45,024 bases of DNA from a virus (taxonomy: Duplodnaviria; Caudoviricetes): the IMG/VR virus record IMGVR_UViG_3300037991_000499, positions 1-45,024 of that record; one strand, 5' to 3'. A program made the position numbers and the translations under genes. This document shows, one piece after another, positions 4,500-44,155 of this stretch. Each line of letters begins with the position of its first letter. Position 1 is the first letter of the stretch. Under the pieces are notes generated by a model. It was not told the DNA's origin, ran no database searches, and saw only the letters and a program-made list of their open reading frames with translations.

Positions 4500-6593
4500 A
4501 TGACCCAAGCAATACAAGAAGTAACAAAGTACATCGAGGGTAAGTGCAATTCAATATCTCGAGGAAGAATGCACACAGGGGCTCGTCTAATAAACTTGAT
4601 GAGACCCTACTCTGTAGATATGGCTGCTTTAACAGTGAGGGCTGTATCTGCAGCCTCTCTCTGCTACCAGAAGAGTAGGCGTAAGTCAGATGCACCATTC
4701 AAGTTGACTGTGACATCTACATCGATTGGTCTTAGTGTTATATCCCATATGGGTGTATTCAATACTAACTACCAAGAGTTGTTGTCTGTTGGGGATTTAT
4801 ACTTGGAAGCTTTACTTCAGCTAGGCTTTATACAAATAGAGAGGGAGTACGATGGGTATAGAGCACCTTACATAATCAAGCTGACTGATCGTTGGATTGA
4901 GATAGGTGACCTACCCCCTGAGTATGAGAAACACACTCTCATGGGTACTTCCTTTGTAAAGCCAAAGCCAATCAATGGACTCAGGAATGAGTTCACCAAG
5001 CGACCATATATAAAGCGTATGAGTTCGGAAAGGGATTTCCAACAGTTGCTTGACAGGCCCTTTGTGAAAGCACTTGATAAACTACAATCAACTGCATGGA
5101 AGATAAACATACCTATTGCTAAAGCACTGGAAACAAACATACATAAGTTCCTTGATCTCGAGGATACCTCAATGAAGTCCAGATCAAAAGCAATAGAGAT
5201 GAAGTTTGTCTTATCTAAAGTACATGCAATAAGTGATAACAAGTTTTATCAAATGGTAGAGTGTGATTATCGTGGTAGGATCTACTACACAGAATCATTC
5301 TTTAACTTCCAAGGGTCTGATATAGCCAAAGGTCTATTCCTATTTGAAGATGGTAAACCATTAGACGATAAGGGGTACCAATGGTTATGCATACATACAG
5401 CTTGTTCATACAACCAATCATACAACATCGAGGATTTACCCGAATGGCTAACAACAGACTATCGAATCTATCTGCAAGACGAAGGATTAACCACAATCTC
5501 AGTAGACAAAATGACTCTCAAAGATCGAGAACTGTGGACACTGAACAATCTCACTTGGATAACCCAATTGGCAGATGGGGAAGAGTTCAGGATGGAAGCA
5601 GAGAAACCAGTGAGTTTCCTAGCAGCATGCACAGAGATTCGAAATTATCTTAACTGTAACGATACATATATGTGTCATTTGCCGATACCTGTGGATGGAT
5701 CTAACAATGGTTGGCAACACTTAGCTGCTATGTCAAAGGACAAACAAGCAGGAGACTTGGTGTCTCTTGTACCTAACGACATACAGAAAGACTTCTATGT
5801 TCAAGTTGCTAAAAGATTAATAGAGAGGTTACCCGAATGGTTTGACGAAAGAAAGATGCCCATGAAAGCTATACGTAAAGGTATAGCAAAGCGTGGGTCT
5901 ATGACTAGAGCATACTCTGCAGGTCAAAAGAAGATAGCTATAAACATGTACCATGACTGTAAGGTTGAAGGTTATACCGAAAAGTACAACATCACAGAAG
6001 ATGATTGTAAAATACTAGCAAAGAACCTGATACTAGCAATCAATGATACTTGTGTAGGTCCGTTAAAGACCATGAAGTTTATCCAAAAGATAACTGACTA
6101 TCTTCTAAACCAAGGAGAGACTTGCACTAAATGGGAAACTCCCTCAGGGTTCCCTGTGTTATACGAAGTGTGGCGACAAAAGAACATCTGTGTTAGGAGT
6201 TCTATCTATGGCTTAGGTCAGATAGGTCACTCCATAAAGATACCTATGATAACGCAGAATGGTGACATGATGCCTTGCCGTAGGTCTTTTGCGTCTGGCT
6301 GTAGTCCAAACTTTGTACACTCAATGGATGCTGCTCACATGGCTAAAGTGATCGATAGTTTCCCCGGAGACTTTGGAGCTATACATGACTCCTTCTCAAC
6401 TCATGCATGTGATGTAGATAAACTACTGGATCATACCAAGTGGCAGTTCGCAATGATGTACAACAAACAAAACTTCTTTAACAATATAGAAACTATGATG
6501 CTTACCACAAGAAAAGACTATGATGTAAAGCAACCTATACTGGGTGAGCTAGACATCTCAGAGATAATATCATCTGATTATTTCTTTTGTTAA
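4500..6593 (+). CDS. Single-subunit DNA-directed RNA polymerase, T7 family, short N-terminus
   Basis: DYRGRIY, NFQGSD, motif A PVDGSNNGWQH, motif B RKGIAKRGSMTRAY, PNFVHSMDA, motif C IHDSF. Confidence 0.95.
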   Translation: MTQAIQEVTKYIEGKCNSISRGRMHTGARLINLMRPYSVDMAALTVRAVSAASLCYQKSRRKSDAPFKLTVTSTSIGLSVISHMGVFNTNYQELLSVGDLYLEALLQLGFIQIEREYDGYRAPYIIKLTDRWIEIGDLPPEYEKHTLMGTSFVKPKPINGLRNEFTKRPYIKRMSSERDFQQLLDRPFVKALDKLQSTAWKINIPIAKALETNIHKFLDLEDTSMKSRSKAIEMKFVLSKVHAISDNKFYQMVECDYRGRIYYTESFFNFQGSDIAKGLFLFEDGKPLDDKGYQWLCIHTACSYNQSYNIEDLPEWLTTDYRIYLQDEGLTTISVDKMTLKDRELWTLNNLTWITQLADGEEFRMEAEKPVSFLAACTEIRNYLNCNDTYMCHLPIPVDGSNNGWQHLAAMSKDKQAGDLVSLVPNDIQKDFYVQVAKRLIERLPEWFDERKMPMKAIRKGIAKRGSMTRAYSAGQKKIAINMYHDCKVEGYTEKYNITEDDCKILAKNLILAINDTCVGPLKTMKFIQKITDYLLNQGETCTKWETPSGFPVLYEVWRQKNICVRSSIYGLGQIGHSIKIPMITQNGDMMPCRRSFASGCSPNFVHSMDAAHMAKVIDSFPGDFGAIHDSFSTHACDVDKLLDHTKWQFAMMYNKQNFFNNIETMMLTTRKDYDVKQPILGELDISEIISSDYFFC

Positions 6594-6607
6594 GTGAGGA
6601 GGAAACA

Positions 6608-6826
6608 ATGACAGACAACGTAACAAGTATGCCGGGTGTAAGTCCAACTGACCCCAAGATAGAACCTGACAAGTACGATGCGGAGAATGCTTTGATGGAA
6701 GATCTTAAAAACTTAATAGAAAAGTACAATGGTCTTATCTCTAATGTAGCTATGGTAGGATGCATACAGATAACCCAAGATATGCTAACAATTAATCTGA
6801 TGACACAAGGAATTGAAGATGACTAA
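6608..6826 (+). CDS. Hypothetical protein
   Basis: GAGGAGGA RBS before ATG 6608; fills the operon gap. Confidence 0.7.
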   Translation: MTDNVTSMPGVSPTDPKIEPDKYDAENALMEDLKNLIEKYNGLISNVAMVGCIQITQDMLTINLMTQGIEDD

Positions 6827-7151
6827 ACAAAATGGATATAAAATCTTTGAAGAGCTAGAGGAGTCTGTAATCCAATGGGCATTCACAAAAGGTATCCTAG
6901 GGGACTACTCAATGGAACGCAGACTAGCTCAGCTAAGTAAATTCGAAGAAGAAGCTTCTGAGTTTATGCATGAAGTAGAAAGTGAAAACCTCCATGCTAT
7001 ACGAGACGAGCTAGGAGACGTTCTGGTAACGCTTATTATCCAAGCAAACCTATGGGGTCTATCCCTGTCAGAATGCTTAGAGGAAGCTTATGAGAAGATC
7101 TCTGCTCGATCTGGTCAGATGATCGATGGCGTATTTGTTAAAGATGAATAA
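6819..7151 (+). CDS. MazG-like nucleotide pyrophosphohydrolase
   Basis: EEASE...DELGDV acidic motif; AYEKI..R.G.MIDGVFVK C-terminus typical of phage MazG-like proteins. Confidence 0.88.
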   Translation: MTKQNGYKIFEELEESVIQWAFTKGILGDYSMERRLAQLSKFEEEASEFMHEVESENLHAIRDELGDVLVTLIIQANLWGLSLSECLEEAYEKISARSGQMIDGVFVKDE

Positions 7152-7162
7152 AGGAAACTAAA

Positions 7163-7417
7163 ATGAGTGAAAAGAAATCATACAACGTAACACCTGATAT
7201 TGATGATATGGAGTATGTAGATATGATGGGTCTTGACCCTGAACTTGCATACACACCTGAGATTAATGATGCTATTCTTCAGCATATCTACTCTGAAAAT
7301 ATCAAACACTATACTGATCGAGGTGATGAACTTGAATTAGCTACACAAAAAGCACAGGTACACTTGAATCAGGGTAAGGCTACTGTAAAACACGCAATAG
7401 AAAAGCGTGGTTACTAG
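7163..7417 (+). CDS. Hypothetical protein
   Basis: AAGGA RBS; last gene before the terminator. Confidence 0.75.
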   Translation: MSEKKSYNVTPDIDDMEYVDMMGLDPELAYTPEINDAILQHIYSENIKHYTDRGDELELATQKAQVHLNQGKATVKHAIEKRGY

Positions 7418-7420
7418 TCG

Positions 7421-7457
7421 AAAAAAAAGACCCCACTAGAAATAATCTAGTAGGGTC
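7421..7457 (-). terminator. Rho-independent terminator for the late (- strand) operon
   Basis: On - strand: GACCCTACTAGA-TTATT-TCTAGTGGGGTC followed by T8. Confidence 0.85.
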
Positions 7458-7464
7458 AACCTAT

Positions 7465-7493
7465 GGGGCTCCTTCGGGAGCCTCTTATTTTTT
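7465..7493 (+). terminator. Rho-independent terminator, UUCG loop
   Basis: GGGGCTCC-TTCG-GGAGCCTC-TTATTTTTT. Confidence 0.88.
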
Positions 7494-7495
7494 AA

Positions 7496-10400
7496 TTATG
7501 GTAGAGGGATACCCTCATAGTCCATCTTGACATTGTCAGTAGAATACTGATGTATGCCTTTGAGGTCCTTGAGTAATTTCTCTCTACGCTGCTTAGCATT
7601 CTTAGCTATAATAGAGAATTTTGATTTTATTTTATTACTATACGAAGTTTCGAAAAACATCTTCGAAAAGCTATAAGCATTTGCATTTGTTATCTTAGCC
7701 ACAGGATCCCCTCCTTTTGGGAGAGACTTGCGTACTGACTCAACAAACTTTTCAGCTCTGCCTGTAATACGAGAACCATACTTTTCTGTAGACTTTTCAG
7801 GGTCTGCTGCCATCTGCGTAATCAAACCCCAAAGGTACTCCGCATGGTTCCTATCAGACATAGCAGCCTTAGGGTTATCCTGAGCAGCTTTCTTCATCTT
7901 AGCTAAGCCAACTAGCTCAGTAGTCTTAAAGCCTTTCTCAAGCTCACCAAGTAAGTCGTACTCCTTATGCATCTTTAACCAAACATCATTAATACCTTTT
8001 GTTACACTAAGGAAAGACCCTAGGTCTGTAACAACAGCATCAAAGATAGGTAGAATATATGGGTCACGACCTCCATTCTCCTTACGTAACTTACTAATTA
8101 CTTCACCAGTAACAATGTTTACCATGGTAGCACCATCTAGCTGGATAACAACCTGAGGGCCTCCTGCACCTCGAGTAGCACCACCCGGGATACCGCCTTT
8201 GGCTTTAACCATAGATATTACTTGACGTACCATTGTCGTAAGCTTCTTACGTTGAGATTCTAATCCAGAAACACCCGGAGACTTTTCACTAGTTTCAATG
8301 AATGATCCAGACTCACCTTTAGCTCTAATACGAGTAGGTATTTCTTTGATAGACTCATACGAGTATTCACGCTCATTTATAGAAGACTTTATACCCAAAG
8401 CGTTTGTGTACACGATAGGCTCATTAACGATAGCTGACATCTCAATATAATCTTGCAAGGTTTGAATGTAATCCACAACATCTTTACCAAGAGTGTTCGT
8501 CAACTCACCTGTCAGTACATGATGCAATGCGCCAGCTAACATATCAGTACCTAATTGATCTGCAATCTGAGTAAGTCTTTTACTTTCAGCTATAGTCTTG
8601 TAAGCCTGACCTTTCATAGCGCTCAAAGACTGACCATAAGGTAACGTCATCATTGGTGGCTTTAAGAAGTTTTTCTTATCATCAGCAGCAAGCTTAATAG
8701 CTTCCATGATAAGACCTGCATCCTCGCTATCGGCAATGTTATGCATCCTCTTAAATGATTCATTTTCAAGGTAATTGTTAGCGTTAGATAATATGTTAGC
8801 TTTTAATAAATCACGAAGGTCACCTTCAATACCTAAGTAATCAGATAAAACTTTATCAGGATCATCTTGGAGTACACCAACTCGATACATAGGATCTTGC
8901 AAACCAAGTTGAGTTACAATAGCAGCAAGTCCGTTAGAGATACCATCGACTTCTACAGGTCTCATTTGAGATGTAAATGACTTATTATTATTCTTGGCAT
9001 CCATGTAACGAGCAAATTCCATAGCATGCTCAATGATACTTATGAACTCTGCAGGGTGCTCTTTAGCCTTATTTAAAAACGCTAATGTAGTGCCAGAGAG
9101 ACCACCTAAAGCTTCATTTAAAGCATCAGCTTCTGGTACTGTAACTAACTCATTAACACCAAAGATACCATTCTCGTTAGCCTCTAACTGAGATAATCGA
9201 GAAACAGTACTGTCTGGGTTAAACCCTAACATGACTGTAGCTAGTTCTTTACCAGCATGCTCAACAATCCTTAATTCAGGATCATTTTTAAAGTCAGCAA
9301 TACGAGCTTTCATACGAGATGCAGATTGCTCAGGTACAAATAAAGCTTGATTAAACAAAGTAGCTCCAAACGAAACTAACATTGCAGTATGCTCTTTCGA
9401 GTTTACTCCGGGCTTTATAGTGTACAAGCTAGATGAACCTAACACATTACGAGCTATCTTATGTGCTTGAGGATTCATAACTTGCTGTTGCATAGTTAGT
9501 CGAGTGTTAGCTAGTTGTCGAGAGAATGTAAAAGAAATCTGCTGATCTTTGTGAACAGCCAAATCGTTTAACATTTCAAGTTGTCTTGTAGCATGTCTTT
9601 GGTACATACTTTGTTGCCAAGACTCTTTGCTTGACTCGCTAATCAAGTCCCTCAGTGCCTCTGCTTTGTTAGCTAAGAACTCTGCACGAGGACTTCCGGG
9701 AAGTGAGCTTTGAATTTGCTTGATAACTTCATCTAACTTAAACTGAGCTTCTACAGGTATACGATTTATTTTATTTATTCTATCTTGACCTATATCAAAG
9801 AAATCAGCAGCGTATGTGAAGTGACTATTACCACCCATTACCCTAGCCTTAGTAGCTTCTTGTATTGCCTTTAAACCGAAAGCAAAAGCTAATTTACCAC
9901 GCATTCCACCAACGACATGCCTCACATTAGCATAGTAAGACATAGCTTCATATATCTTGTTTTGGTGTTTAATGCCTGTCTTTAACTGTCTACCTGTAGT
10001 TTCTTTGGCAAAAGCCTGACTACCTTGACGAGGTTGACCTCTGCTACTAGGTGTACCAACAAGAGGTTTAATCTTAAATGTAGGTAATTTAAGTCTAGCA
10101 GCTCTCTCTTTTATCTTTTCCTGACCATAGGGAGTTAGTTGATAAAAGTCATTGTCAGTATCATAGGGAACAGCCTTTAGTATTTCAGGGTTAGCCTGAG
10201 CATACATCTGCATAGCATGTAAACCAGCAAGTGAGTAAGCTTCTTGAGTTAGCTTCGGCATATTTTCAAGACTTGGTCTAGTAAATTCACCACCTTCTCT
10301 AGCTCCCCTAGTAGCGTACCACATCTTTTGAATAGACCTGCCCATAGACTCTATTGTTTGAGCTTGAGACTCTTCGATCTCTTGTTGTAGCCCTAAGTCT

Positions 10401-11131
10401 TTGACATCTTCTTTACTTAAACTATCCACTACATTTTGAGGGATAAGTGTACCAGTTTGAGCTAACATAGGTTCAATAACAGAAAATGCTGTAATCATGT
10501 AATCAGGGTCTATTCGATATGAACGTGCATCACTAGTACGAACTGAAGCATTGAACCCCAGAGGTCCAATAAACAGAGATTGTTGATCTAACTTCACCTT
10601 ATTGTCAACATCAAGAGATGCTTCGTTCTCTTGAGGTGACTTAAGATTATCTATAGATCCAGCTTCTAAAAGAGCTAAGTCTGCTTCAAACTCAGGATCC
10701 CCATTTGTTCTTGCAGTGTACAGGTTATCGGAGTTATCCTTAACCTTAACTAGTGAATCAATAACTTCAGGTCCGGAAACAGGCCCCCAGATATTCATTA
10801 TATCAGTAGAGCCCATAAAACCCCGGGCATCAAAGTCCCCAACATCATACAAATTTTGCATTGAAGGAGGCTGCTCTCTTATTTGTTGTTGAAGTTCGAG
10901 AGTCTCAGGGCCCAATTTCGGTACGTTAAACTCACCCACGTAGCCAACCTCCGGAGAGGCAGCTACAGTAGGTTCTTGGGGTACTGGGGTTATACCCTCT
11001 TCAGTTACCTGTAAAGGCGCAGCAGCAGACTCTTGAGTAGCACCAGTTAGACGTTCACGTAGAAGTCTTGACAACTCGCTATCAATTTCTGCTTGCTTGC
11101 TTTTTGCTAATGTTTGCGATTTACCCGCCAT
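7496..11131 (-). CDS. Putative virion-encapsidated single-subunit RNA polymerase (N4 vRNAP-like)
   Basis: Motifs in the expected order: TRLTMQQQVMNPQAHKIAR, PVEVDGISNG (A), KNFLKPPMMTLPYG (B), PQVVIQLDG, LPIFDA (C). Last gene of the ejection-protein cluster. Confidence 0.8.
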   Translation of the reverse strand: MAGKSQTLAKSKQAEIDSELSRLLRERLTGATQESAAAPLQVTEEGITPVPQEPTVAASPEVGYVGEFNVPKLGPETLELQQQIREQPPSMQNLYDVGDFDARGFMGSTDIMNIWGPVSGPEVIDSLVKVKDNSDNLYTARTNGDPEFEADLALLEAGSIDNLKSPQENEASLDVDNKVKLDQQSLFIGPLGFNASVRTSDARSYRIDPDYMITAFSVIEPMLAQTGTLIPQNVVDSLSKEDVKDLGLQQEIEESQAQTIESMGRSIQKMWYATRGAREGGEFTRPSLENMPKLTQEAYSLAGLHAMQMYAQANPEILKAVPYDTDNDFYQLTPYGQEKIKERAARLKLPTFKIKPLVGTPSSRGQPRQGSQAFAKETTGRQLKTGIKHQNKIYEAMSYYANVRHVVGGMRGKLAFAFGLKAIQEATKARVMGGNSHFTYAADFFDIGQDRINKINRIPVEAQFKLDEVIKQIQSSLPGSPRAEFLANKAEALRDLISESSKESWQQSMYQRHATRQLEMLNDLAVHKDQQISFTFSRQLANTRLTMQQQVMNPQAHKIARNVLGSSSLYTIKPGVNSKEHTAMLVSFGATLFNQALFVPEQSASRMKARIADFKNDPELRIVEHAGKELATVMLGFNPDSTVSRLSQLEANENGIFGVNELVTVPEADALNEALGGLSGTTLAFLNKAKEHPAEFISIIEHAMEFARYMDAKNNNKSFTSQMRPVEVDGISNGLAAIVTQLGLQDPMYRVGVLQDDPDKVLSDYLGIEGDLRDLLKANILSNANNYLENESFKRMHNIADSEDAGLIMEAIKLAADDKKNFLKPPMMTLPYGQSLSAMKGQAYKTIAESKRLTQIADQLGTDMLAGALHHVLTGELTNTLGKDVVDYIQTLQDYIEMSAIVNEPIVYTNALGIKSSINEREYSYESIKEIPTRIRAKGESGSFIETSEKSPGVSGLESQRKKLTTMVRQVISMVKAKGGIPGGATRGAGGPQVVIQLDGATMVNIVTGEVISKLRKENGGRDPYILPIFDAVVTDLGSFLSVTKGINDVWLKMHKEYDLLGELEKGFKTTELVGLAKMKKAAQDNPKAAMSDRNHAEYLWGLITQMAADPEKSTEKYGSRITGRAEKFVESVRKSLPKGGDPVAKITNANAYSFSKMFFETSYSNKIKSKFSIIAKNAKQRREKLLKDLKGIHQYSTDNVKMDYEGIPLP

Positions 11132-11142
11132 TGGGTTCCTCC

Positions 11143-14100
11143 TTAATTCAATGTATATTCTGTAGCTCTGTGCTTGACAGAACCTAGGAATGGTAAACTA
11201 CCATAGAAGTTTTTAACCATCTTAACGTCATCATCTTCCATGTATCCTTCAGCTATCCCATATACCCTTTCTACTGTACCTACAGCAGCAGCTTCACCAG
11301 CTACGTTGTTCCATAGGAAGTGTAAGGGTGTAGGGCTTCTGTCTTCACCATATAATGGGAATAAGAAGTTACTGCCGAGTATTCGTTCACCAGTCCCTAA
11401 CAGACCTGAAGAGTAAATACCTCTAAGTACTTTTTCACGATCAGTCAAATATGGACTTGACTCACCATACTTAAGTTCATCTTTAATTGCTTGGGATAGG
11501 AATGACATGAATACCATAGTAGCTAATGTAGCAAAAGTAGAGTAACGTAACCCCACGTTGCCCTTAACACTTTCCCAAAGTCTTGGTATTTGGTTTGCTG
11601 TGAATGTTGACACATAACCATTAAACTGGGTCAATAACATAAATCGTGGGTCACTATAGAATAGTGGACGATTGAATGCGTTAGGCATTGGTACAGCTTG
11701 GTTTATAAAGTTAGTAGCTCCATTAAGGAACTGAGTTTCCCAGAACACCTGATCTTGGGCGTTAAGTTTGTCTAGCCCACCTTTGGCTACCATCTTTTCT
11801 GAAATGTCTACCATTCGATCAACAGGAACACCTAGGTCTTGTAGCATCCTACGTGCATTCCGAACTTCATTAGTTTCAGGTCTACCTCGACTTGTGTAAA
11901 CAAGCGATAGCTTTTCCATCAAGAAATCATTATAGAATGCAGCTCGTATGTGCCTGTGCATTTGAGTCTGATCTTGCAAGAAGTTAGCCTTAAAGAAAGC
12001 ATCTGCAATAACACGAGTAAAGTCGTTAGTCTCAGTCATACCAGTTGTAGTTGCTGCACCTGTTTCTTGTAGACCCAGACCAGCTCTATTGACGAGATCC
12101 TCAGGGGATCCACGTTCAACTTGGGAGCCTTTACCTGACTCCATAATACCAGCTTCTTTAGCTACACCAGAAACCCTAGAGACTTCCCCAAGGTTCTTCA
12201 TGTAGTTTGCTAATGCCTTACCAGCTTGTTGACCAACAGTTCCAATGTTATCTAGTAGTATTTCACGAGAAACACCATGAGGTAATAAACCCCATTCTGG
12301 TAATGAAGAAAACGCAGCTAGGCCCAAACCCTGAAGTGCAGTAAGTAGTGTTAAGTACTTTTGTGCATTCTTAAGGAATGGTGACTCGATACGATTGTAG
12401 TTACCAGATTCAGCGTTAAGTAGGTTTCTTACGTTAAAGGCAGCTTTACTAATGTCTTTCATTAAGCTGTCTAATACTCGCTGATCCCCAGCGGCATACT
12501 CTCTAGCTTCTTTAACCATATCTTCAAACGCTTGGTCTACCAATGAACCATCTTGACCGAAGAAAGTCATATGAGCTTGGTAACGAGCATTAGCACGAGC
12601 AGCTTCACTCATATTATTAAAGAAGTTCTGATCTAAAAACTCAGCAAACTCAGGGTTATCAGATAAACCAAACTTACGACTCTTATGTTCTCCCGGTAGG
12701 ATACCACCTTTTAAAACATCAAAAGCTTCTTGAGCATTAGTGATATTCTGGTTATTAATGATCGAATATGTAATCGCTTCAGCTTCACCTTTACTTAACT
12801 GAGGGTAGTTTTTCATAAGTGTGTTTACAAACTTAACACGATTCTTTTCGATATAGTCTCGCTTAAAACCTTTATGCCTAAATATCCAATCAGGTAAATT
12901 ACGAATAGCTGCCCTGTTAGCTGCTTTATTTATATCGTTAGTTTCTTTAAGCATACGGACTGCCATATTGTCAGCCCTTGTAAGAGTCTCTATAAGAGCT
13001 TCTTTGTTATCCCTGTAGGTAGGGTCCAGTGACTTCCAATCGACCTTATTAAGGGCCTCTCTGACAGTCATAGAACCATCTTTACCTTGCTTGGTAATGT
13101 TAATCAAAACTTTCCTGTAGAAACCATCAATAATCTTAGATGCCTCTTCAGCTTTAGCAGCAGCAGACTTAGCTTTGTTGACAGTGAACTTATCTATAAG
13201 ATCCTCAGACTTACCTAATGTTTCGTTAAGAGAAGCATTGATGTGTCCTTGGAGGTTGGTAAAGCTACGTCCGGGGAGAGCCCCACCAGTTGTATGACCT
13301 AATACAGATAAGAATCTAGCTGCTGTAGGTAACTTAGCACCTAAGTCTCCTAGGTATCTTGATGAAGCTGCTTGGAAGAACCCTAAGGGGCTCTGAACAA
13401 ACTGCCACATTTTACCGATAGTCGTAGTTTCTTCAGCTTCATAGTTAGCAGCAAGACTATCTGTAGTTATACTTTTGACTTTCTTACGTTTGCCTTTCTT
13501 ACCTTTGACTTTTTTAGCATTTACTTTTTTCTGTTGAGCTGCAGTCCATTCTTCATTTACACGAACTTTGTCATACTCTTGAACTTCTTTTTCAGAGGCA
13601 TAGTCAAACTTTCTTCTATCTTCTGGATCTGCGTTAGTCAAAGCATCAGCAACTCTTTTCCAATCCCCAGCGTCATAAGCTGCTCGAGGGATCATAAACG
13701 TACCACCTAGTAAACCACCAGCTGCAGCAGCGTTTATTAATCTGTTTTCAACTTCATCAAAGTCCCATTCTTTGTTAGAACCTAATACAGCTGCAGTGTA
13801 CTGTGTAAGCTCCTGCATCATCTCCGTAGCTGATTCCCCAGCAGCACCTTTAGAGATCTGACCAACAGCTCTCCTTAATGCAACGCCTCGAGCAACCTGA
13901 TCTTGAGCTAATCGTAGCCCATCAGACGACAGTTCAGCTAAAGCACGTTTAGACATACTAGCAACCATCTGAGATGCTTGATCGTAAGTGAGACCATCTT
14001 CTTCCCTGAGATACTCAATAAGTTCTTTACGACCTTCTTTTGTTATTGCCTGTGAAGGAGATATAAGACCTTTGGCACCCACTCGATCAGCTACCATCAT

Positions 14101-15201: not shown

Positions 15202-15204
15202 AAT

Positions 15205-18361: not shown

Positions 18362-18371
18362 CAGTGTCTCC

Positions 18372-19465: not shown

Positions 19466-19475
19466 AATACTTCTC

Positions 19476-19916: not shown

Positions 19917-19917
19917 T

Positions 19918-33342: not shown

Positions 33343-33354
33343 TATTATCCCCTA

Positions 33355-34116: not shown

Positions 34117-34135
34117 TTATATATCTCCTTTGATA

Positions 34136-34477
34136 TTAAATTTTCTTCATATGTGAAGTAATTAAGTCAGGGTACTCACTGTATATAATACGTTTTAATC
34201 GAATCATATTTGCAGGGTCATCTAGGAAGTCATCTGCATGAACATTGAGTTTATATTTTGTTAGTATATCAACAGCAACAATATCAGGTATGATAAATAA
34301 AGGTCTGTATTTCTGACCAGCACCAAAGTTATCTCGACCTTGGTTTCTCATATCTTTTGCATAGTTGCGGTAGTGATCGACATCTTGTGTCAATCGAAAT
34401 TGATTTGTTCCAGTTTCTATATCAAAACTGTGACGATTATCTTCTTGTGATTTTTGTCCCATAATAGCGTCCTCCAT
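34136..34477 (-). CDS. Hypothetical protein
   Basis: IPDIVAVDI motif. True start may be the second Met (GGAGG upstream). Confidence 0.7.
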   Translation of the reverse strand: MEDAIMGQKSQEDNRHSFDIETGTNQFRLTQDVDHYRNYAKDMRNQGRDNFGAGQKYRPLFIIPDIVAVDILTKYKLNVHADDFLDDPANMIRLKRIIYSEYPDLITSHMKKI

Positions 34478-34481
34478 TAGG

Positions 34482-34512
34482 AAAATAAAAGGGGCTCCCT
34501 TAGGAACCCCTT
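34482..34512 (-). terminator. Terminator after the major capsid gene
   Basis: On - strand: AAGGGGTTCC-TAAG-GGAGCCCCTT-TTATTTT. Confidence 0.85.
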
Positions 34513-34528
34513 AAAATATTAGCTGCGA

Positions 34529-35554: not shown

Positions 35555-35587
35555 TTGTATTTACCTCTTATTTTAATATAGCAGTAT

Positions 35588-36682: not shown

Positions 36683-36696
36683 AAATTATTACTCCC

Positions 36697-36930
36697 TTAG
36701 TCCTCTTTTTTCTTAGACACTTTTTTTGATTTAGGTTTAGGTGCACTAGCTGGTGCCTCTAATGCTAGATCAGTTTCTAGCTCCTTAATCATAAAACACA
36801 AATCAGCAAAGGTTGGTGCGTGTAGTCGTGCCTTGCCCTGTGAACCAGCAATCTCTCCAATGAGTGCATGCTTCGCTTTAATGGCAAAATCGAGTGCTTT
36901 CTTAGCCTTCTCGCTCTGTAAATTATTCAT
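36697..36930 (-). CDS. Hypothetical protein
   Basis: Coupled ORF in the head module. Confidence 0.65.
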   Translation of the reverse strand: MNNLQSEKAKKALDFAIKAKHALIGEIAGSQGKARLHAPTFADLCFMIKELETDLALEAPASAPKPKSKKVSKKKED

Positions 36931-37291
36931 CTATATTTTCCTCGTTTAATTGACTCTCACTTAGAAACTGGGAGTTAAACCCAAATGTTTCAATTCGTAC
37001 TAGACGTTCTTTCACTGAACCTAACCCTAATGCTACGTGATATAAGTATTCACGTTCTTTAGTGCAGTGGGGTTCTGTCTGTAACCATGCTTCGAATAGT
37101 TCCAGCATGATTTCACCATAAGCATCATCAAAAAACTGTTCTCGATCTTTTCGAGCAAACTCAGCTTTAGTTAATGCTAGTTGTGCGGTGGGGAAAGTGT
37201 CCGGTTTATATGAGCCATCTGTTTGCATTTGCGGTTTAAACTTTTTGTTAGCCGCATTAGTGTACTTCTTTACACTTGCCTTCTTCGTCAT
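36923..37291 (-). CDS. Head-module hypothetical protein
   Basis: GAGG RBS before MTKK; W..TEPH.TKEREYLY. Confidence 0.7.
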   Translation of the reverse strand: MTKKASVKKYTNAANKKFKPQMQTDGSYKPDTFPTAQLALTKAEFARKDREQFFDDAYGEIMLELFEAWLQTEPHCTKEREYLYHVALGLGSVKERLVRIETFGFNSQFLSESQLNEENIDE

Positions 37292-37433
37292 ATTTACCTC
37301 ATTAATAAAAATTGGTAACAGGCGGCAACCCATAGAGGGCTTAGAGCCGCCTGCCAATCAGATTCTTTTTATCTGTGAATCCACCAGAAGATACTTTATC
37401 ACCTTTCCTTAATATAGCATCTCAAGCTATTGT

Positions 37434-37799
37434 TCAATTACTTTCATCACTTTTCTTTTCTTGGCGTGATAGTGCTTCTATCGTACCAATTCGAATAGTG
37501 AGCTCATGTACTCGATCCTGCATCTCACTTAACTTTTGTATATCTCGCTCTAGCCCTTGTATTAACATATCTTGTCTTGCATCGTCAGGTAACGAACCCA
37601 GTTGACCTCGGGGCCAAAGGATTCGAAACTCTGAGTTTGATTTTATTTCAAGATCTGTCATTTCAACATTATGCTCGAGAGCCGTAAGTCGAGATTCAAT
37701 TGTGAAGTAAGCCATAGTAGCGATTGCGGTAAAAGCAATCATGCCCAATATATTCTTGAGTGGAATAGTGAACTCTGAACTTTCTGATATTTTAGTCAT
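37434..37799 (-). CDS. Single-pass membrane coiled-coil protein
   Basis: Hydrophobic ILGMIAFTAIATMAYF followed by coiled coil. Confidence 0.7.
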   Translation of the reverse strand: MTKISESSEFTIPLKNILGMIAFTAIATMAYFTIESRLTALEHNVEMTDLEIKSNSEFRILWPRGQLGSLPDDARQDMLIQGLERDIQKLSEMQDRVHELTIRIGTIEALSRQEKKSDESN

Positions 37800-37817
37800 T
37801 TGACCACCTTATAGTAG

Positions 37818-39998
37818 TTATTGACCCTGCGGTCCAATCATCTGTTCCATAGCCCCTGCTACTTCAGAAACAACAGTTTTACCAGTTTGAGGCTGTGTCA
37901 TCTGAGAGTTTACAAGAGTTAATGCCTTAGCATATATCTCATCAATACTTGGGTGTTGTAGTATTGGTTGCTGCTCCTTACCAGCCTGAATAGCCACTTT
38001 GTTCCATTCTTGATACGATTTATCCAAGGCAACCATAAGTTGCTTAAGATTATCTTGAATGGCATTCTGAGATTGAACATTAGTATAGTCAATGTTCGCT
38101 TGTTTGAGATCCATCTCTTTCTGAAGTTTAGTAAGCTCCATCTCTTTCTGTTTGGCGATTTCCTGCTGTTCCATTTCACGAGACTTCGCAACTTGCTGTT
38201 TAAATTCATCAGTTGTGAAATCTACAATGAAGTCCATAGGATTCTCACCTAAAGCGTCAATTGCTTTGTGGGCAATCTTTGCTGCAGCTTCTGGGGATAC
38301 TACTCCACCAGCACCAGCGTCTCGTAGTGCAGGTAATACCTGACCACCGATAACTTGCAACTTCTGCAACTTAGTACTGTTGGCTGCATCACCAACGTCA
38401 GCTTCAACAGATAAGTACTCGCAAGGGGGTAAGTCCTTAAACAGAACATCGTTGAAATCTGAGTTGCCAGTATATGCTCCAACGGAAACATCACTTAGTT
38501 CTTTGATCATAGTCTTGTAGACACCTTCGATGAGATCTAACCCACCAGTTTCCATAAACCTACGAGCAATGAACTGTATTCGTACTTGTGCAGCAGATTG
38601 CACTTGGGATACTTTGGCTTCGGAGTTGCCCGACACATATAGCGTATCATTCAAACCCTGGGCTGCTTTTGACAGACCAGTGGCTTGCTCTTTCTGTTCC
38701 TGCAGGTATTGCAATAGTGGAACTGTACCTGTAGAGATTTGCTCTGGTGGGAGCGATGCTACAGCTGCGTTCGGATTACCGATAGAAGCAATAACAGACT
38801 TAGGTTTGTAGTTTTGCAAAGCAGAAAAGTCTACAGTATTTGGGTCTGCAATTTTAGGAGCGTAGTTAGTAAGGTATGTATTCTCAACAAATCCACGTAG
38901 TATAGCAGTGGTAGCAAGAGTAGATGGTCTTGCCATATCAGCCATAGAAAGGCCAGTGAGTTCATGTGGAATTTTGAAGGGAACAAAGGATGCTACCTGA
39001 ATGTGGTCAACATCTTCTTCTTCAAGGATAGTCTTACCAACTTTAACAACACGCTTGAGTTCTGCAATACCATCGCCATCTCGGTCTACATAGACCCAAC
39101 ACTTGACAATAGTAGCAGGATGCATTGCTTCAAGTTCTTCTGTGGGGGACTTCAAGCCTACGCCTGTGTCAGCCCCGGATGCTTTACGTCTCGCAGACTT
39201 ATCATCATTCATGATCTCTTTATAAGTATACGAATGCGTATCAACATCATCCCATTCTATTTCATCAGCTTTTTCTGGGTATCGAGCTCGTATTGCGGAG
39301 CGACTTGTTTCAAACTCTAATGCTACCATTGGAGCGTCATGCAAGTTCTCTGCATCTCGAGAGATACGTAAAGCTTCTGGAGGTACGTTCTTGATTTCTA
39401 CTTTACGAGTAGTTATAGTTCGATTTACACGAACATCTAAGTATGTACCTGTTATATCATCTAAGTACAGATCGCCAACGATTTCTACATTAGGATCTGC
39501 TAGAAGTGAGTCAAGAGCTTCGACAGTAATTTCTTCATACTCTTGTGCGGTTACTTTTACGTCTTCAACGTAGTCCCAAGTGATAATACCTTCTTTCCAT
39601 AAGAGGCCAGACTTAACGTAAGTGTTAAGAATATCCCAACCACGATTCTTTTTAAAGATAGCACAGTTGACTGCCTCTGCACCAGCTCGGGCACGTTTGA
39701 CACCTAGAGGCGTGTTATCAGATGGGGTTAATCTTGCGAGTTTGTTATTATCAAACAACAACTCAGAAAGCACTGCGGTGTAACCTTCGATAGCTTCAAC
39801 TGTATCTGAGGCAACAATTTTAGAGACACCTTGGGGAGCTAGGTGATTGAGAGGTTGCATGGCATACTCCATGGTAGCCTTCTCTCGCTCAGCACTTAAC
39901 TCTGTAGTGTCTAAGAAATTTCCATTTGATTGGGAAATCTCAGAGTCTATTAAGTGTACCAATTCCTCATCGGAAACTGGCTTTAATCCTTCTATCAT
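37818..39998 (-). CDS. Portal protein
   Basis: 726 aa after TerL; DRDGDGIAE, GLSMAD, TGLS...QG. Confidence 0.9.
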   Translation of the reverse strand: MIEGLKPVSDEELVHLIDSEISQSNGNFLDTTELSAEREKATMEYAMQPLNHLAPQGVSKIVASDTVEAIEGYTAVLSELLFDNNKLARLTPSDNTPLGVKRARAGAEAVNCAIFKKNRGWDILNTYVKSGLLWKEGIITWDYVEDVKVTAQEYEEITVEALDSLLADPNVEIVGDLYLDDITGTYLDVRVNRTITTRKVEIKNVPPEALRISRDAENLHDAPMVALEFETSRSAIRARYPEKADEIEWDDVDTHSYTYKEIMNDDKSARRKASGADTGVGLKSPTEELEAMHPATIVKCWVYVDRDGDGIAELKRVVKVGKTILEEEDVDHIQVASFVPFKIPHELTGLSMADMARPSTLATTAILRGFVENTYLTNYAPKIADPNTVDFSALQNYKPKSVIASIGNPNAAVASLPPEQISTGTVPLLQYLQEQKEQATGLSKAAQGLNDTLYVSGNSEAKVSQVQSAAQVRIQFIARRFMETGGLDLIEGVYKTMIKELSDVSVGAYTGNSDFNDVLFKDLPPCEYLSVEADVGDAANSTKLQKLQVIGGQVLPALRDAGAGGVVSPEAAAKIAHKAIDALGENPMDFIVDFTTDEFKQQVAKSREMEQQEIAKQKEMELTKLQKEMDLKQANIDYTNVQSQNAIQDNLKQLMVALDKSYQEWNKVAIQAGKEQQPILQHPSIDEIYAKALTLVNSQMTQPQTGKTVVSEVAGAMEQMIGPQGQ

Positions 39999-40157
39999 TT
40001 TATTACCTCAATATCACGATTGATTCTATCTATCTAATTAGGGGAGGTTTCATTTCATATTCCCAGTACAAAGAAACACATCCAAACAAGTACCTGAGGA
40101 GGACTATTGGGAAACCTTAAATTCTTTTGGGCAACGCCCTAAGATCCTCGGACCCAG

Positions 40158-41804
40158 TTACAGCCATTGAGTATTGTCCGGAACATATGATCTGTTCTTG
40201 AACGATACATTGGTAGTAGAGAGTCGGTCTGCGTGAGTCCTGAGGACCTCAAGGGCAATTGCTGTTGCGATAACTGTATCATCATTACAACCTTTTATCG
40301 CGTTGGTACGACCATTTTCATCAGCCACGTAATCCTTACATTCTTGGATTATCGTAGGGGACGCGAGATTAATATCATCATTCTCTATTGCGTTCTTAAG
40401 ATGACCTATGATCATGGGTTTAGTAGCTTGCGTTGTTCTCCAACCTAAACGTGTACCTTCCTCGTTAGATACATTAGCTACTTTGGTTTGATGGTACAGG
40501 TTCACATAACTCATCTGCTTGAGACGATTCAATGTGGCTATACCCAAGGAATTTGATTCAACTGCTAGTAGAGCATTGTTGTAATAGCGTCCTAAATAAA
40601 ATAAAAGATCCCCATACTCAGTGGGGTCAATTTTATTGTTACGATATAAAGCTACGACTTCTCGTTTGGTGTTCATAACTACCGCTGCGGAGGAGTCTTG
40701 ACCAACACCCAAAGCTACGTCAGCACCAATAATAAAGTGCTCACTAAACTTGGGATACTGAAAGATAGTCATACTGCCTTCGTTGTGATCCTCAAAGGAA
40801 CTCGATGCAAGGCTGAATGATTGTTTCTTCAATACAGGTTCGGGTTGTAAGTCGTTTAGTCTTTCTATGTTAAATACGTTGGAGCCAGAAACCAAAAAGG
40901 CTTCATCTGGGGTGGATGGATATTCCTGTCGGAATTTACTCAAGCCACCTTCGGCTATTTTAAGTCTGCGCCAATAGAGCTGATCAAGCCCTAGGTCATG
41001 TTTTTCTTTAAGATCTAGTTCTTCTTCTGTCAAAGTTTCAGTAAATGCGTCCTCGTCGCCTACATCTCTGCGGTACTCTGACATTAAAAACCAAGGGACG
41101 AAAATTGGAATGTACTCATTCTCGCCTGCTACTGCACCTTTCCATAATCTGTGGAATGCATTACCCACACCATTAGCAGTGGATTCTAGAATTACTTCTG
41201 TTCCATCAGCTTGGGATATACCTTGGAAAAGGCCAGCAAGGATTTTCTCGTCATGTGTCCAGAAAGCAACCTCAGATAAATGAGCAATAGTTGGGGTGGT
41301 ACCCCGTCCTGCTTCTGGAGATCCAGCCGTGTATAATCTGTAGCCTGACTCGTTGTGTTCAAACATTATCTCCTTTGCGTTGGATCTTTTGAACTTAGGT
41401 TTAAACTCAGGTTCCATGTTCTGAATGATATTCCTTGACATTGAGAACAAAGCATCCGATGTAGCACTGTCGTGTGCCATAACAACGGATTTGTTATACG
41501 GACTCAGGTAAGACTTCCAAAAGACTCGCCCACATGAATACGTGGAGAGTCCCATCTGTCTAGCCTTTAGGACAATAGCTCGGACCTTTCCGGTCTCTGC
41601 TAGTTGTTTCTCGATGGCGTCATTTACAATACGTTGCGCCTCGTTAAACTCAAAAGGTATAAAACCTCGTGTGGAGTCCTTAGGGAGTATGCGTACTTGT
41701 TCTGTAGCAAACTCGGCAAAGGATCCTTTGTATCGTTCAAGGTCCTTACGCTTCTTAGCTTCTTTAGCCAGCGCAAGTTTTTGACGATTAGTTAATTGAT
41801 TCAT
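40158..41804 (-). CDS. Terminase large subunit
   Basis: LKARQMGLST, HLSEVAFW, ESTANG, GADVALG, DDTVIA. Start placed at MNQL after GGAGGA. Confidence 0.95.
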   Translation of the reverse strand: MNQLTNRQKLALAKEAKKRKDLERYKGSFAEFATEQVRILPKDSTRGFIPFEFNEAQRIVNDAIEKQLAETGKVRAIVLKARQMGLSTYSCGRVFWKSYLSPYNKSVVMAHDSATSDALFSMSRNIIQNMEPEFKPKFKRSNAKEIMFEHNESGYRLYTAGSPEAGRGTTPTIAHLSEVAFWTHDEKILAGLFQGISQADGTEVILESTANGVGNAFHRLWKGAVAGENEYIPIFVPWFLMSEYRRDVGDEDAFTETLTEEELDLKEKHDLGLDQLYWRRLKIAEGGLSKFRQEYPSTPDEAFLVSGSNVFNIERLNDLQPEPVLKKQSFSLASSSFEDHNEGSMTIFQYPKFSEHFIIGADVALGVGQDSSAAVVMNTKREVVALYRNNKIDPTEYGDLLFYLGRYYNNALLAVESNSLGIATLNRLKQMSYVNLYHQTKVANVSNEEGTRLGWRTTQATKPMIIGHLKNAIENDDINLASPTIIQECKDYVADENGRTNAIKGCNDDTVIATAIALEVLRTHADRLSTTNVSFKNRSYVPDNTQWL

Positions 41805-42161
41805 CTGGTAGTCCTCCAGTTGCATAAGAGTCCTGACGGACTTCCGGGGCATAGCCCGGACAACACAATGCAAAAATGAATGTTGAAAAGGTTACTAAGG
41901 GTGTATAGAGTAGTACATAGGAAGCCTAGGAAGTCCCTATAGTCCCTTAGGATCCCTTCAGACCCCTAGTGATTCTTTTAGATATATTACTTAGATATAT
42001 TCTCGTTAAGAGTACTCCCTAGCGTATACCTTAGGTATTACTAAGAAGGGGGAAGGGGTAGTATGAGTCCTAAGTGACTACACTATGGTTCTGAAGTTAC
42101 TACCTAAATAATACCTAAGGTAGTCTAAGAAGCCCCTTCATCTTCTTAGATAGATCCATAA

Positions 42162-42186
42162 TGTTCCTATAAGGTACTATAAATAC
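42162..42186 (-). promoter_or_regulatory. Candidate phage RNAP late promoter, copy 1
   Basis: On - strand GTATTTATAGTACCTTATAGGAACA; identical 25-mer at 42213-42237. Confidence 0.65.
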
Positions 42187-42212
42187 CTAGGTACTACATT
42201 CCGTGTATAATG

Positions 42213-42237
42213 TGTTCCTATAAGGTACTATAAATAC
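42213..42237 (-). promoter_or_regulatory. Candidate phage RNAP late promoter, copy 2
   Basis: Exact 25-bp direct repeat, 51-bp period, pointing into TerL. Confidence 0.65.
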
Positions 42238-42645
42238 TCTGAGAAGGTACTTAAGTGTATATAATTGGAGTACCCCTAGGGTCCCTAAATAGAGGTCTAT
42301 AGCGTACATAAGTTAATCCCAGATTATATCAGGTACCCCAAAGTATTTCCTATCCCCCCAGTAATCCCTAGGGACACTTCTGTAGTCTCCACACCCATAG
42401 TAGTACCCTAGGGTAGCCCTCAGGTACTCCTCAGGGGCTTCTCAGGGACTCCTCAGGGTACTTCATGGGTATAACCTTGAGTGAGGGTAGAACCTATGGG
42501 TACAGATGGAGTACCAAGGGGTACCCTAGGGGAACTCCTAAAGTACTACTCAGGGACTCCTCAGGGACTCTCACAGTACCACACAGTACCACACAATACA
42601 GGGTAGTACCTTAGGAAGTAGCGACCGTGTCTAATACTACGTAAA

Positions 42646-42658
42646 GGGGCTGCGCCCC
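42646..42658 (+). promoter_or_regulatory. Candidate hairpin promoter for the virion RNAP
   Basis: Template strand GGGGC-GCA-GCCCC (C-GNA-G triloop), about 60 nt before the first early gene. Confidence 0.5.
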
Positions 42659-42716
42659 ACTGAAGGAAGCTCACATCGAGCACTTAATTAACATGATAGC
42701 CAAGAGGATAAATATC

Positions 42717-43145
42717 ATGCCAGTAATGAAAAACGTAGTAATCCGTAACTCTCGCATTGTAACTCCAGTACGTAAATCTTGGGGTGGACAATATTCTTTA
42801 GTAATCGAGACGCCTCAGGGCCATCTCGTTTCAGACTCCAGTGCTGATGGTGAAAACCAGTACTGGCTTAACTGGAATGCAGAGTACCCAAATGGCGACT
42901 CGATTGCGCCTGTCCCTCAAGTTCGTGGTAAGTCAGTAGTAACTGACCCTACAGAGCTTGGTAATGGTTCCGTAGTAGACCTAGCGTTCGAAACAGTCGA
43001 GCGTAATGGTAAGAACTACTACAACCTGAAAGCAATCAAGCTTGTGCAGTACGTTAAGCCTAAGAGCTTACTCGACCTGTTCGACACTGATGAGACCTTT
43101 GAGTCTGATCCGGTGGAAGCTTTCGATGCAGAACCACAGTTCTAG
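42717..43145 (+). CDS. ssDNA-binding protein (T7 gp2.5-like)
   Basis: LGNGSVV...LKAIKLVQY; acidic tail ending in Phe; AGAGGA RBS. Confidence 0.7.
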   Translation: MPVMKNVVIRNSRIVTPVRKSWGGQYSLVIETPQGHLVSDSSADGENQYWLNWNAEYPNGDSIAPVPQVRGKSVVTDPTELGNGSVVDLAFETVERNGKNYYNLKAIKLVQYVKPKSLLDLFDTDETFESDPVEAFDAEPQF

Positions 43146-43150
43146 GCCAC

Positions 43151-43180
43151 AGGGCTCCTTCGGGAGTCCTTTATTTTTTT
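43151..43180 (+). terminator. Rho-independent terminator, UUCG loop
   Basis: AGGGCTCC-TTCG-GGAGTCCT-TTATTTTTTT. Confidence 0.88.
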
Positions 43181-43212
43181 GCCACTAGCTATATAGTGCC
43201 ACGGAGATTCAT

Positions 43213-43293
43213 ATGGAAATCTTTCAATTAGTCTTATTCACTCTTTGTGCTGTGTTCGGCTTAGCTGCCGCTGTAGCATTAACTATAAAGTAA
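43213..43293 (+). CDS. 26-aa hydrophobic peptide
   Basis: GGAG RBS; MEIFQLVLFTLCAVFGLAAAVALTIK. Confidence 0.6.
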   Translation: MEIFQLVLFTLCAVFGLAAAVALTIK

Positions 43294-43310
43294 ATACTTG
43301 GAGAATACAG

Positions 43311-43544
43311 ATGTATACTACATTAACTAGCAATATCGTAAGTGAAACCCTAAACATCATAGATCAGCTCGACCACGGAACTCACCAACAAATGGAAGAT
43401 TCCTCAGAGCTGTCACAGCATCTAGGTGACTGCCTACGAGCTGCTCAATTAAACCAAATCTCATTCTTAGATTTCTGCAAAGAAAGCTGGGATGTACTTG
43501 ATAAGATCGACGAGTTCGATAAAAATAACCAACAAGAAAGGTGA
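43311..43544 (+). CDS. Hypothetical early protein
   Basis: GGAGA RBS before MYTT. Confidence 0.7.
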   Translation: MYTTLTSNIVSETLNIIDQLDHGTHQQMEDSSELSQHLGDCLRAAQLNQISFLDFCKESWDVLDKIDEFDKNNQQER

Positions 43545-43548
43545 TCTC

Positions 43549-43647
43549 ATGGAACTTGTACATGAAATATTCGACTACTCATTCGTAGGCAGCTTCACAG
43601 CTATGCTTATATTGACAGCCGCATTATTATTCTCAATGTTTGACTAG
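43549..43647 (+). CDS. 32-aa hydrophobic peptide
   Basis: AAGGTG RBS; MELVHEIFDYSFVGSFTAMLILTAALLFSMFD. Confidence 0.6.
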   Translation: MELVHEIFDYSFVGSFTAMLILTAALLFSMFD

Positions 43648-43656
43648 GGGACTCTT

Positions 43657-43863
43657 ATGGAACCTAACAAAGAAATCTCGGGCCTGCTACATCTCATTGA
43701 GAATGGTAGGCACCGACACTCAATCCACTATAAGTTTAAATCATTAACCCAACAAGAGGATCTATTGAACCAACTTATGTCCGAAGCAAACCCTGATAGT
43801 GATGCATACATTATTCAATGTGATGCTGATAACCAATATATTGCAACTCATAATATGGAGTAA
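43657..43863 (+). CDS. Hypothetical early protein
   Basis: GGGGA RBS; tight packing with neighbours. Confidence 0.65.
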   Translation: MEPNKEISGLLHLIENGRHRHSIHYKFKSLTQQEDLLNQLMSEANPDSDAYIIQCDADNQYIATHNME

Positions 43864-43868
43864 CTACA

Positions 43869-44141
43869 ATGCGTAGAACAGAAATCCTTAAAATTCAATT
43901 ACTTAACTCTCGTGGTCGTTTCTTCACAACTACATGGCGTGGTCCAACGAAACTACAACAAACTCTCAACTTCAAAGTAACTGAAGTAAAGAAAGTACTT
44001 CAAGATCGTATCGAGGTCAAAGCTTATGTGCCTAGCTCAAAAAGCTACCAAAATATATCTTTCTTCATGGATAAGAAGGGCGACTTGCTCTACTTATCTT
44101 CCGATAAAACTAAGATTCAACTCTCCGGCTCAGGTATCTGA
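43869..44141 (+). CDS. Hypothetical basic protein
   Basis: GGAG RBS; GRFFT motif. Confidence 0.7.
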   Translation: MRRTEILKIQLLNSRGRFFTTTWRGPTKLQQTLNFKVTEVKKVLQDRIEVKAYVPSSKSYQNISFFMDKKGDLLYLSSDKTKIQLSGSGI

Positions 44142-44155
44142 TTTATAGTACCTTA
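44141..44155 (+). promoter_or_regulatory. Third copy of the candidate promoter core
   Basis: ATTTATAGTACCTTA, 15/15 match to the late repeats, intergenic and upstream of the rIIA-like gene. Confidence 0.65.

Follow-up and report, generated by a model that had tools for sequence, protein, structure and literature searches.

The 45,024-nt virus contig IMGVR_UViG_3300037991_000499, analysed here over its entire length and hereafter called the window, is predicted to encode two single-subunit RNA polymerases (RNAPs) on opposite strands: RNAP2, a T7-type enzyme closing the plus arm, and a 1211-amino-acid (aa) protein, the likely virion RNAP (vRNAP), closing the late operon (Table 1). A first-pass annotation had proposed two RNAP genes, opposite-strand late genes, T7-like replication genes and an SU10/phiEco32-type capsid, and all of these stand: RNAP2 is identified by PF00940 and the 1211-aa protein by its predicted fold and motifs, the late genes occupy the minus strand, the capsid, portal and adaptor belong to SU10-type Pfam families, and the replication genes match DNA polymerase A, exonuclease and primase/helicase. 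In the plus arm, the order is the likely single-stranded DNA-binding protein (SSB) gene (42717), the GHKL-ATPase gene and, beyond a gap, DNA polymerase, exonuclease, primase/helicase and RNAP2. The minus arm starts with the large terminase gene TerL (40158-41804), continues with portal, capsid and tail genes and finishes with three large proteins, of which the 1211-aa gene product is the final one. Set against five relatives of 44-60 kb and the cultured Roseobacter phage CRP-7 (MK613349), the window is a permuted fragment from which approximately 13-15 kb is absent between the right end and the DNA polymerase gene. The relatives' genomes measure 52-60 kb and that of CRP-7 58.1 kb. Fifteen window proteins match CRP-7, with the core genes in the same order and identities of 57% (TerL), 53% (capsid), 46% (portal) and about 35-36% (RNAP2). 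In a search of 50,697 phage records, RNAP2 (with gp30), capsid and TerL all had their best cultured match in CRP-7, which was also the sole cultured match of a 1352-aa late protein, and no recognisable N4-like phage was found among the best 30 capsid and best 25 TerL matches. Judged by gene content and order, the window is a fragment of a CRP-7-type marine podovirus. Sequence 95-99% identical to positions 33000-45024 occurs in marine/aquatic metatranscriptome assemblies from four studies.

Table 1. Features of the window, with the polymerases and their predicted promoters listed first.
Feature	Position	Strand	Remarks
1211-aa cysteine-free single-subunit RNAP, likely virion RNAP	7496-11131	-	End of late operon
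RNAP2, 697-aa T7-type single-subunit RNAP, short N-terminus	4500-6593	+	PF00940, E 6e-56; final large gene of plus arm
Hairpin, predicted virion-RNAP promoter: 5-bp GC stem, 3-nt loop (template strand C-GCA-G), 4-nt spacer, then AAGG	42646-42666	+	+1 at ~42663 by N4 spacing
Linear motif, proximal late copy, predicted RNAP2 promoter	42162-42186	-	-17 to -1 = 42184-42168; predicted +1 G 42167
Linear motif, distal late copy, predicted RNAP2 promoter	42213-42237	-	Predicted +1 G 42218
Linear motif, middle copy, predicted weaker/shifted RNAP2 promoter	44141-44157	+	Departs from late copies at -2 to +1
Likely ejection cluster: 1352-, 588-, 168-, 311- (LysM/lysozyme-like), 162- and 201-aa proteins and a 181-aa gene	11143-20021	-	phrog_6958 virion protein, E 2e-8; LysM
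First early gene, 142 aa, likely single-stranded DNA-binding protein	42717-43145	+	
GHKL-ATPase-domain gene, cut by window end	44178-45024	+	PF13589, E 2e-5, only domain shown
Replication block: DNA polymerase A (cut at window start), 5'-3' exonuclease, GIY-YIG endonuclease, primase/helicase	16-4494	+	5' of RNAP2
SU10/phiEco32-type adaptor, major capsid, scaffold, portal, then large terminase	33355-41804	-	PF24175, PF17236, PF23899
Two terminator-like hairpins where the arms converge	7429-7457; 7465-7484	-; +	Consensus match only
Terminator-like hairpin 3' of likely SSB gene	43151-43170	+	

The 1211-aa protein has no Pfam match and no match among PDB sequences, hits only phrog_414 in PHROGs (E 7e-4), and neither it nor its family gave a tblastn match in cultured phages. 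A profile search of 1.84 billion representatives (E 0.001 or better) delineated a family that comprises, at 50% identity, 342 or more protein clusters, with a median length of 1181 aa; full-length members among the 150 listed matches mostly span 1100-1300 aa. In a 121-row alignment of the window protein with 120 of these 150 matches, picked by length, D729, K824, Y832 and D1031 of motifs A, B and C are invariant, as is R561 (121/121 each), and K558 is kept in 105 rows. In a profile alignment, K558, R561 and E727 align with N4 K437, R440 and E557, residues that PMC4496689 describes as contacts of the initiating nucleotide. The catalytic and initiating-nucleotide residues are kept across approximately 20% identity. 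With an AlphaFold model of residues 201-1211 (pLDDT 77) as query, all 39 listed Foldseek rows were T7, mitochondrial or N4 RNAPs (E 2e-12 onward). A VIA search ranked single-subunit RNAPs in the top six places (Z 11.8-17.1, family A DNA polymerases reaching at most 9.7), with yeast mitochondrial RNAP at Z 17.1 (root-mean-square deviation 5.2, 481 residues aligned) and N4 mini-vRNAP at Z 14.2 (5.2, 577 aligned). The family profile matched seven Schitoviridae vRNAP domains at 98% (E 3.9e-14) and RNAP2 at 60% (E 8.6e-5), reversed controls giving E 0.09 or worse. The 1211-aa protein is predicted from its model to have the right-hand single-subunit RNAP fold of T7/mitochondrial/N4 type and is very probably an active RNAP. 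By profile score it is closer to the N4 virion RNAP than to RNAP2, and the profile scores together with the shared residues make descent from the N4 vRNAP likely.

Gene position and cysteine absence make packaging of this polymerase in the virion highly probable. Its gene is the final late gene, as is gp50 in N4, and is preceded by a virion-protein match and a LysM/lysozyme-like protein. As far as is known, ejected phage proteins lack cysteine. The window copy of the 1211-aa protein contains none, nor do 112 of the 121 family members, with at most one in all 121. The count is likewise zero in the adjoining 1352-, 588-, 168-, 311-, 162- and 201-aa proteins (the 181-aa gene lying outside this count) and in the controls N4 gp50 and gp51 and T7 gp15 and gp16, a resemblance that points to packaging of the 1211-aa protein. 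RNAP2 has 17 cysteines, and 81 RNAP2 homologues have a median of 13, all with more than one. Cysteine lack as a mark of ejected proteins agrees with the N4 and T7 controls and is echoed in PMC10747016, where a vRNAP was proposed for StenR_269 from size and cysteine absence alone. The neighbouring 1352- and 588-aa proteins found no support as candidates for split-off N- and C-terminal domains of N4 gp50, for gp51 or for T7 gp15/gp16 (E 0.12 or above against single sequences, reversed controls equal), in what is a weak test. The N-terminal region of the 1352-aa protein (11143-15201, minus strand) shows a weak endonuclease match (phrog_452, E 9e-4) and is also similar in CRP-7 gp34.

CRP-7 itself has a cysteine-free protein, gp33, encoded at the same place as the 1211-aa gene and recorded as hypothetical. 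BLAST and hidden Markov model searches gave no link between the two, and only profile-profile comparison did (95%, E 3.7e-8, 586 columns). The gp33 family keeps both aspartates and the tyrosine, and on this comparison gp33 is a homologue of the 1211-aa protein.

RNAP2 matches the T7 RNAP at E 9e-114 by profile. The co-occurrence of both polymerases in metagenomic relatives, put forward as a check in the earlier reading, is borne out: in the best 80 of 123 IMG/VR loci carrying the 1211-aa family, near-identical contigs included, RNAP2 lies tail-to-tail with the family gene on the opposite strand in 75. This arrangement holds in 68 of 68 loci with at least 3.5 kb downstream, and the five loci without RNAP2 had less than 750 nt. 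RNAP2 is a single chain in the window. In one of the 75 loci, L105 (2619-4820), it is split over two adjacent open reading frames (ORFs) of approximately 230 and 500 codons, which recalls the split RNAPII of N4 or reflects a sequencing error.

An exact 15-mer recurs at 42170-42184 and 42221-42235 on the minus strand and at 44141-44155 on the plus strand, with no exact copy in 200 shuffles. The two late copies share 25 nt; in each, a 17-nt stretch that closes with TATA runs into GGAAC, the arrangement seen in annotated T7 promoters. The start-site deviation of the middle copy recurs in the matching copies of relatives G001 and G005 and recalls the weaker promoter class of T7. G001, G002, G003, G004, G005 and G009 all carry the same core, on the late strand ahead of TerL and on the opposite strand within the middle arm, as phage-specific variants in which flanks or one core base differ between phages and largely agree within each. 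In CRP-7 a related 23-nt motif occurs at five sites (2023, 7144, 14761, 38283 and 57233), in every case oriented towards the genes that follow it. The plus arm holds three of these copies, including one that lies 9 nt 5' of the RNAP gene; of the other two, one lies at the late start and the other (38283) falls within the late region, and 30 shuffles of the right half gave none. These patterns argue strongly for the linear motif as the RNAP2 promoter of the late genes.

The candidate early promoter is a hairpin, GGGGC-TGC-GCCCC (42646-42658), the only window match with at most two mismatches. As described in PMC4496689, N4 hairpins have a C:G closing pair, a loop with 5'-G and 3'-A, a purine at -11, G at -8 and C at +1; the window hairpin fits the closing pair, the loop ends, the -8 G and the spacing but neither the -11 purine nor the +1 C. 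Weak on its own, it draws its weight only from relatives. A GC-rich triloop hairpin with a purine-rich start 9 nt past the loop lies directly 5' of the SSB-like gene in the window, G001, G002, G003, G005 and G009 (the G004 contig lacks this region), and the same scan recovers the 9-nt loop-to-start spacing in N4's own three hairpins. The relatives' loops are mostly GAA, GGA or AAA. Genome-wide, such hairpins number one to three per genome, nearly all at the starts of gene blocks, against shuffle means of at most 0.2 in a test that is favourable, as its filter was derived from the same hairpins. A second hairpin approximately 3-3.6 kb 5' of the DNA polymerase match heads the block ending in RNAP2 in G002, G003 and G009, much as a hairpin stands before gp15 in N4. 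The distant G006 carries a hairpin with a 5-nt loop four times, one copy just 5' of its SSB-like gene. Taken together, the hairpin is a probable early promoter. Tandem 73-bp repeats stand just before the first early hairpin in G001 (five, 49467-49759) and G005 (two, at 457 and 530), each containing a long triloop hairpin with the early-strand loop TTC or TGC, the latter as in the window. They are possibly decoys, loading sites or genome-end elements.

The SSB label of the first early gene comes from a weak phrog_112 match of two of six homologues (E 0.0018), the window copy not among them, an acidic tail with a terminal Phe, and ESM look-alike clusters in which 10-59% of members bear ssDNA-binding Pfam families; the SSB alignment had no meaningful match in PDB. 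A second SSB-like gene is present in the middle arm of G009 (L166, 11263-11769). The GHKL-ATPase gene was found in two of five relatives and not in CRP-7. The GHKL ATPase is the only domain matched in it, and its earlier name, rIIA-like, is presumptive.

Transcript evidence consists of contigs assembled from RNA libraries. Contigs of two studies have their first base at 42676 and 42686, which is 13-23 nt downstream of the start predicted from the hairpin. On the late side, one contig stops at 42206, 12 nt beyond the start predicted for the distal copy; a comparison run of unknown kind bridges the hairpin where the RNA contigs begin. Such contig ends near predicted starts are weak hints. One further contig ends at 43152, and another crosses the terminator 3' of the SSB gene (it could be DNA). 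Positions 42246-42609 had no cover in three RNA runs, and the comparison run had none at 42155-42427 either, so the gap proves nothing.

Based on these findings, we consider likely a two-step cascade in which a packaged, hairpin-reading 1211-aa enzyme is followed by RNAP2 acting on a linear 17-bp promoter; such a phage would draw little or not at all on host RNAP. We propose the following sequence: (i) the cysteine-free polymerase would leave the virion with the adjoining ejection proteins and start approximately 11 nt downstream of the centre of the loop in the 42646-42658 hairpin, likely with SSB as the first product; (ii) the replication genes and RNAP2 would be reached from a second hairpin or by terminator read-through, which is the least certain step; (iii) RNAP2 would amplify the middle genes, which in CRP-7 include the polymerase gene itself, and start the opposite-strand late operon at two tandem promoters, the operon ending in the virion polymerase gene and so resetting the cycle. 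The first-pass annotation had outlined this model (a hairpin-reading injected RNAP, SSB first, RNAP2 on a linear promoter), which fits everything testable and is conserved in relatives. Its linear motif before the GHKL gene and the late operon is upheld by the three exact window copies and by recurrence in six relatives and CRP-7. The hairpin before the first early gene is present and recurs in five relatives, although the window copy alone is weak; early SSB synthesis agrees with the gene's place directly past the hairpin, although the label derives from weak matches. Start sites at sigma70 promoters, which would speak against the model, find no echo in a scan that gave six sigma70-like sites where 7.6 are expected by chance and none 5' of the late operon, although the scan may miss the promoters of the host. 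The suggestion of a distinct lineage needs correcting, as the window belongs with CRP-7, whose group was already described in 2019, though with one RNAP reported.

Several observations weigh against this cascade, in addition to the favourable hairpin shuffle test. A match to the window hairpin arises in 14 of 100 shuffles, its folding z of -1.0 is not significant by energy alone, and it breaks two of the N4 rules, with a pyrimidine at -11 and a template T at +1. The early arm of CRP-7 lacks a GNA-triloop hairpin and has only a 7-nt-loop hairpin twice and one 4-nt-loop hairpin; the loop types of G006 and CRP-7 fit promoters that change with the polymerase, or the picking of whatever hairpin is present. 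G006 gave no clear linear motif, and the partial arms of G007, G008 and G010 showed neither the motif nor any repeated hairpin. Structure scores rank the N4 vRNAP no higher than T7 or mitochondrial RNAP, the gp33 family has Arg at the motif B lysine with Lys four residues before, and many of the 80 loci are near-duplicates and hence dependent on each other. The second hairpin is missing near RNAP2 in the closer relatives G001 (complete), G004 and G005, the nearest in G001 lying approximately 19 kb upstream, so that RNAP2 there would need a ~19-kb read-through or a host step. First synthesis of RNAP2 is the main gap in the claim of host independence, and a cycle completed entirely without host RNAP strikes us as possible but somewhat doubtful.

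At this gap host RNAP could act as a bridge between the two phage polymerases, transcribing the middle arm or RNAP2 before RNAP2 takes over, which is a serious possibility though not the one we favour. Besides the three relatives with no hairpin near RNAP2, the terminator 3' of the SSB gene fits such a bridge, as do the next small genes (43245-44141), which have neither motif and show four weak sigma70-like matches, and some 13-15 kb of the arm is absent from the window. Those matches, however, are at chance level, the second hairpins of G002, G003 and G009 stand before the replication-RNAP2 block as the N4 hairpin stands before gp15, and the contig crossing the terminator, if RNA, would speak for read-through.

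Two further explanations are improbable. The linear motif might be a middle promoter or a replication or packaging signal, with late genes transcribed by SSB-directed host RNAP; N4 works in this way, as PMC4496689 has it, and the genome-end region that contains the late copies is rich in repeats, so that packaging or origin signals are conceivable there. Yet the geometry of the motif is that of a T7 promoter, and the motif points towards the genes that follow it on either strand and recurs within the CRP-7 late region and before the CRP-7 RNAP gene, and the late operon has no sigma70-like site 5' of it in the scan. The 1211-aa protein might instead be an ejection protein that uses a polymerase fold for another purpose, such as DNA pulling or priming, or is inactive, the hairpins being RNA-processing or decoy elements. 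Its lack of Pfam and PDB sequence matches, the Lys-to-Arg change at motif B in the CRP-7 family and the further hairpins without a purine start in the tandem repeats of G001 and G005 would agree with this, but the retention of catalytic and initiating-nucleotide residues at such low identity, the N4-like hairpin spacing and the shift of loop type between clades as the polymerase diverges speak against it.

Some observations concern the rest of the genome. Imperfect 11-nt and 10-nt repeats at 42370-42600, between the late and early promoters, probably lie near the genome ends, and other tandem repeats occur at the same place in relatives. Two radical SAM/SPASM genes (25828-27520, minus strand) lie inside the late arm near a collagen-repeat tail fibre and are possibly a cassette modifying a virion protein; the fibre, of 981 aa (30397-33342, minus strand), has 7-residue Ala/Ser/Thr-rich repeats followed by collagen repeats. 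No tRNAs were found in the window. G003 (L058, 13983-18431) and G002 (L055, 12070-17802) contain ORFs resembling, by eye, the amidoligase/glutamine amidotransferase/ATP-grasp cluster of phiEco32/PaP3-like phages.

Each part of this system has precedent, while the combination and the stand-alone compact virion polymerase appear undescribed: a full-text literature search, which did not reach most subscription papers or any supplements, yielded no short virion RNAP or two-polymerase cascade in the CRP-7 group. Packed single-subunit RNAPs have so far been treated as an N4-like hallmark, and one vRNAP survey, by the available text of PMC10654107, removed matches below 2,500 aa, a cut-off that would drop a family of 1211-aa size. 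A virion polymerase one-third the size of the N4 enzyme, found in phages with an unrelated capsid and coupled to T7-style late transcription, would amount to a new way of organising phage transcription and would bear on the origin of the N4 enzyme and the role of its extra 2,300 residues. Tentatively, a widespread marine podovirus family may complete its cycle without host RNAP by means of two single-subunit enzymes, a natural mini-vRNAP and a minimal T7-type enzyme that has a promoter of its own. If so, the mini-vRNAP with its clade-specific hairpins may resemble the form from which the N4 giant enzyme grew, and the group would be a source of many orthogonal polymerase-promoter pairs, those differing between clades being usable as expression tools. 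With CRP-7 and its host in culture, the cascade is directly testable.

CRP-7 shares with the window its gene order, the gp33 homologue and five copies of a related linear motif, and differs in its hairpin loops and in the annotation of gp33 as hypothetical; in the available part of its 2019 description (PMC6918029) it forms a new group of its own, with one RNAP (ORF30) and no promoters reported. Like N4 and other Schitoviridae, the window phage has a virion-type RNAP with a homologous catalytic core as the last late gene behind ejection proteins, triloop hairpins of equal spacing, first early genes that include one for an ssDNA-binding protein, and opposite-strand late genes. In contrast, its vRNAP has ~1200 instead of ~3500 aa, counterparts of the N4 N- and C-terminal domains were not detected in the neighbouring proteins, and its capsid and portal are SU10-type. 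N4 has an RNAPII composed of gp15-gp16 and uses host RNAP with N4SSB for late genes, whereas a single-chain RNAP2 and a T7-style late promoter are predicted here. The published definition of Schitoviridae (PMC7650795, as far as its text is available) comprises a ~3500-aa virion RNAP, three RNAP genes with RNAPII in two subunits, an N4-type core and 59-80 kb genomes with terminal repeats. By that definition, the short vRNAP, single-chain RNAP2 and SU10-type capsid place the window phage outside the family. With T7 and the Autographiviridae it shares a T7-type RNAP, a predicted 17-bp promoter ending in TATA before GG with weaker middle variants, and polymerase A, exonuclease and primase/helicase. 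T7 differs in using host RNAP for early genes, in its early-placed RNAP and co-directional genes and in having no virion RNAP, whereas the 697-aa RNAP2 closes the middle arm here. Autographiviridae have a co-directional genome with a T7-type capsid module, and the layout in two opposed arms and the SU10-type capsid place the window phage outside that family as well. The phiEco32/SU10 and LUZ24-like podoviruses have the same capsid, portal and adaptor families; to our knowledge they depend on the host enzyme for transcription and have no single-subunit RNAP gene of their own. A functional parallel lies with the phiKZ-like jumbo phages, in which virion and non-virion polymerases give host-independent transcription (PMC4496689). 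Their enzymes are multi-subunit, of beta/beta'-type, and their genomes far larger, and the system proposed here, if confirmed, would be the single-subunit counterpart of that strategy in a 58-kb genome.

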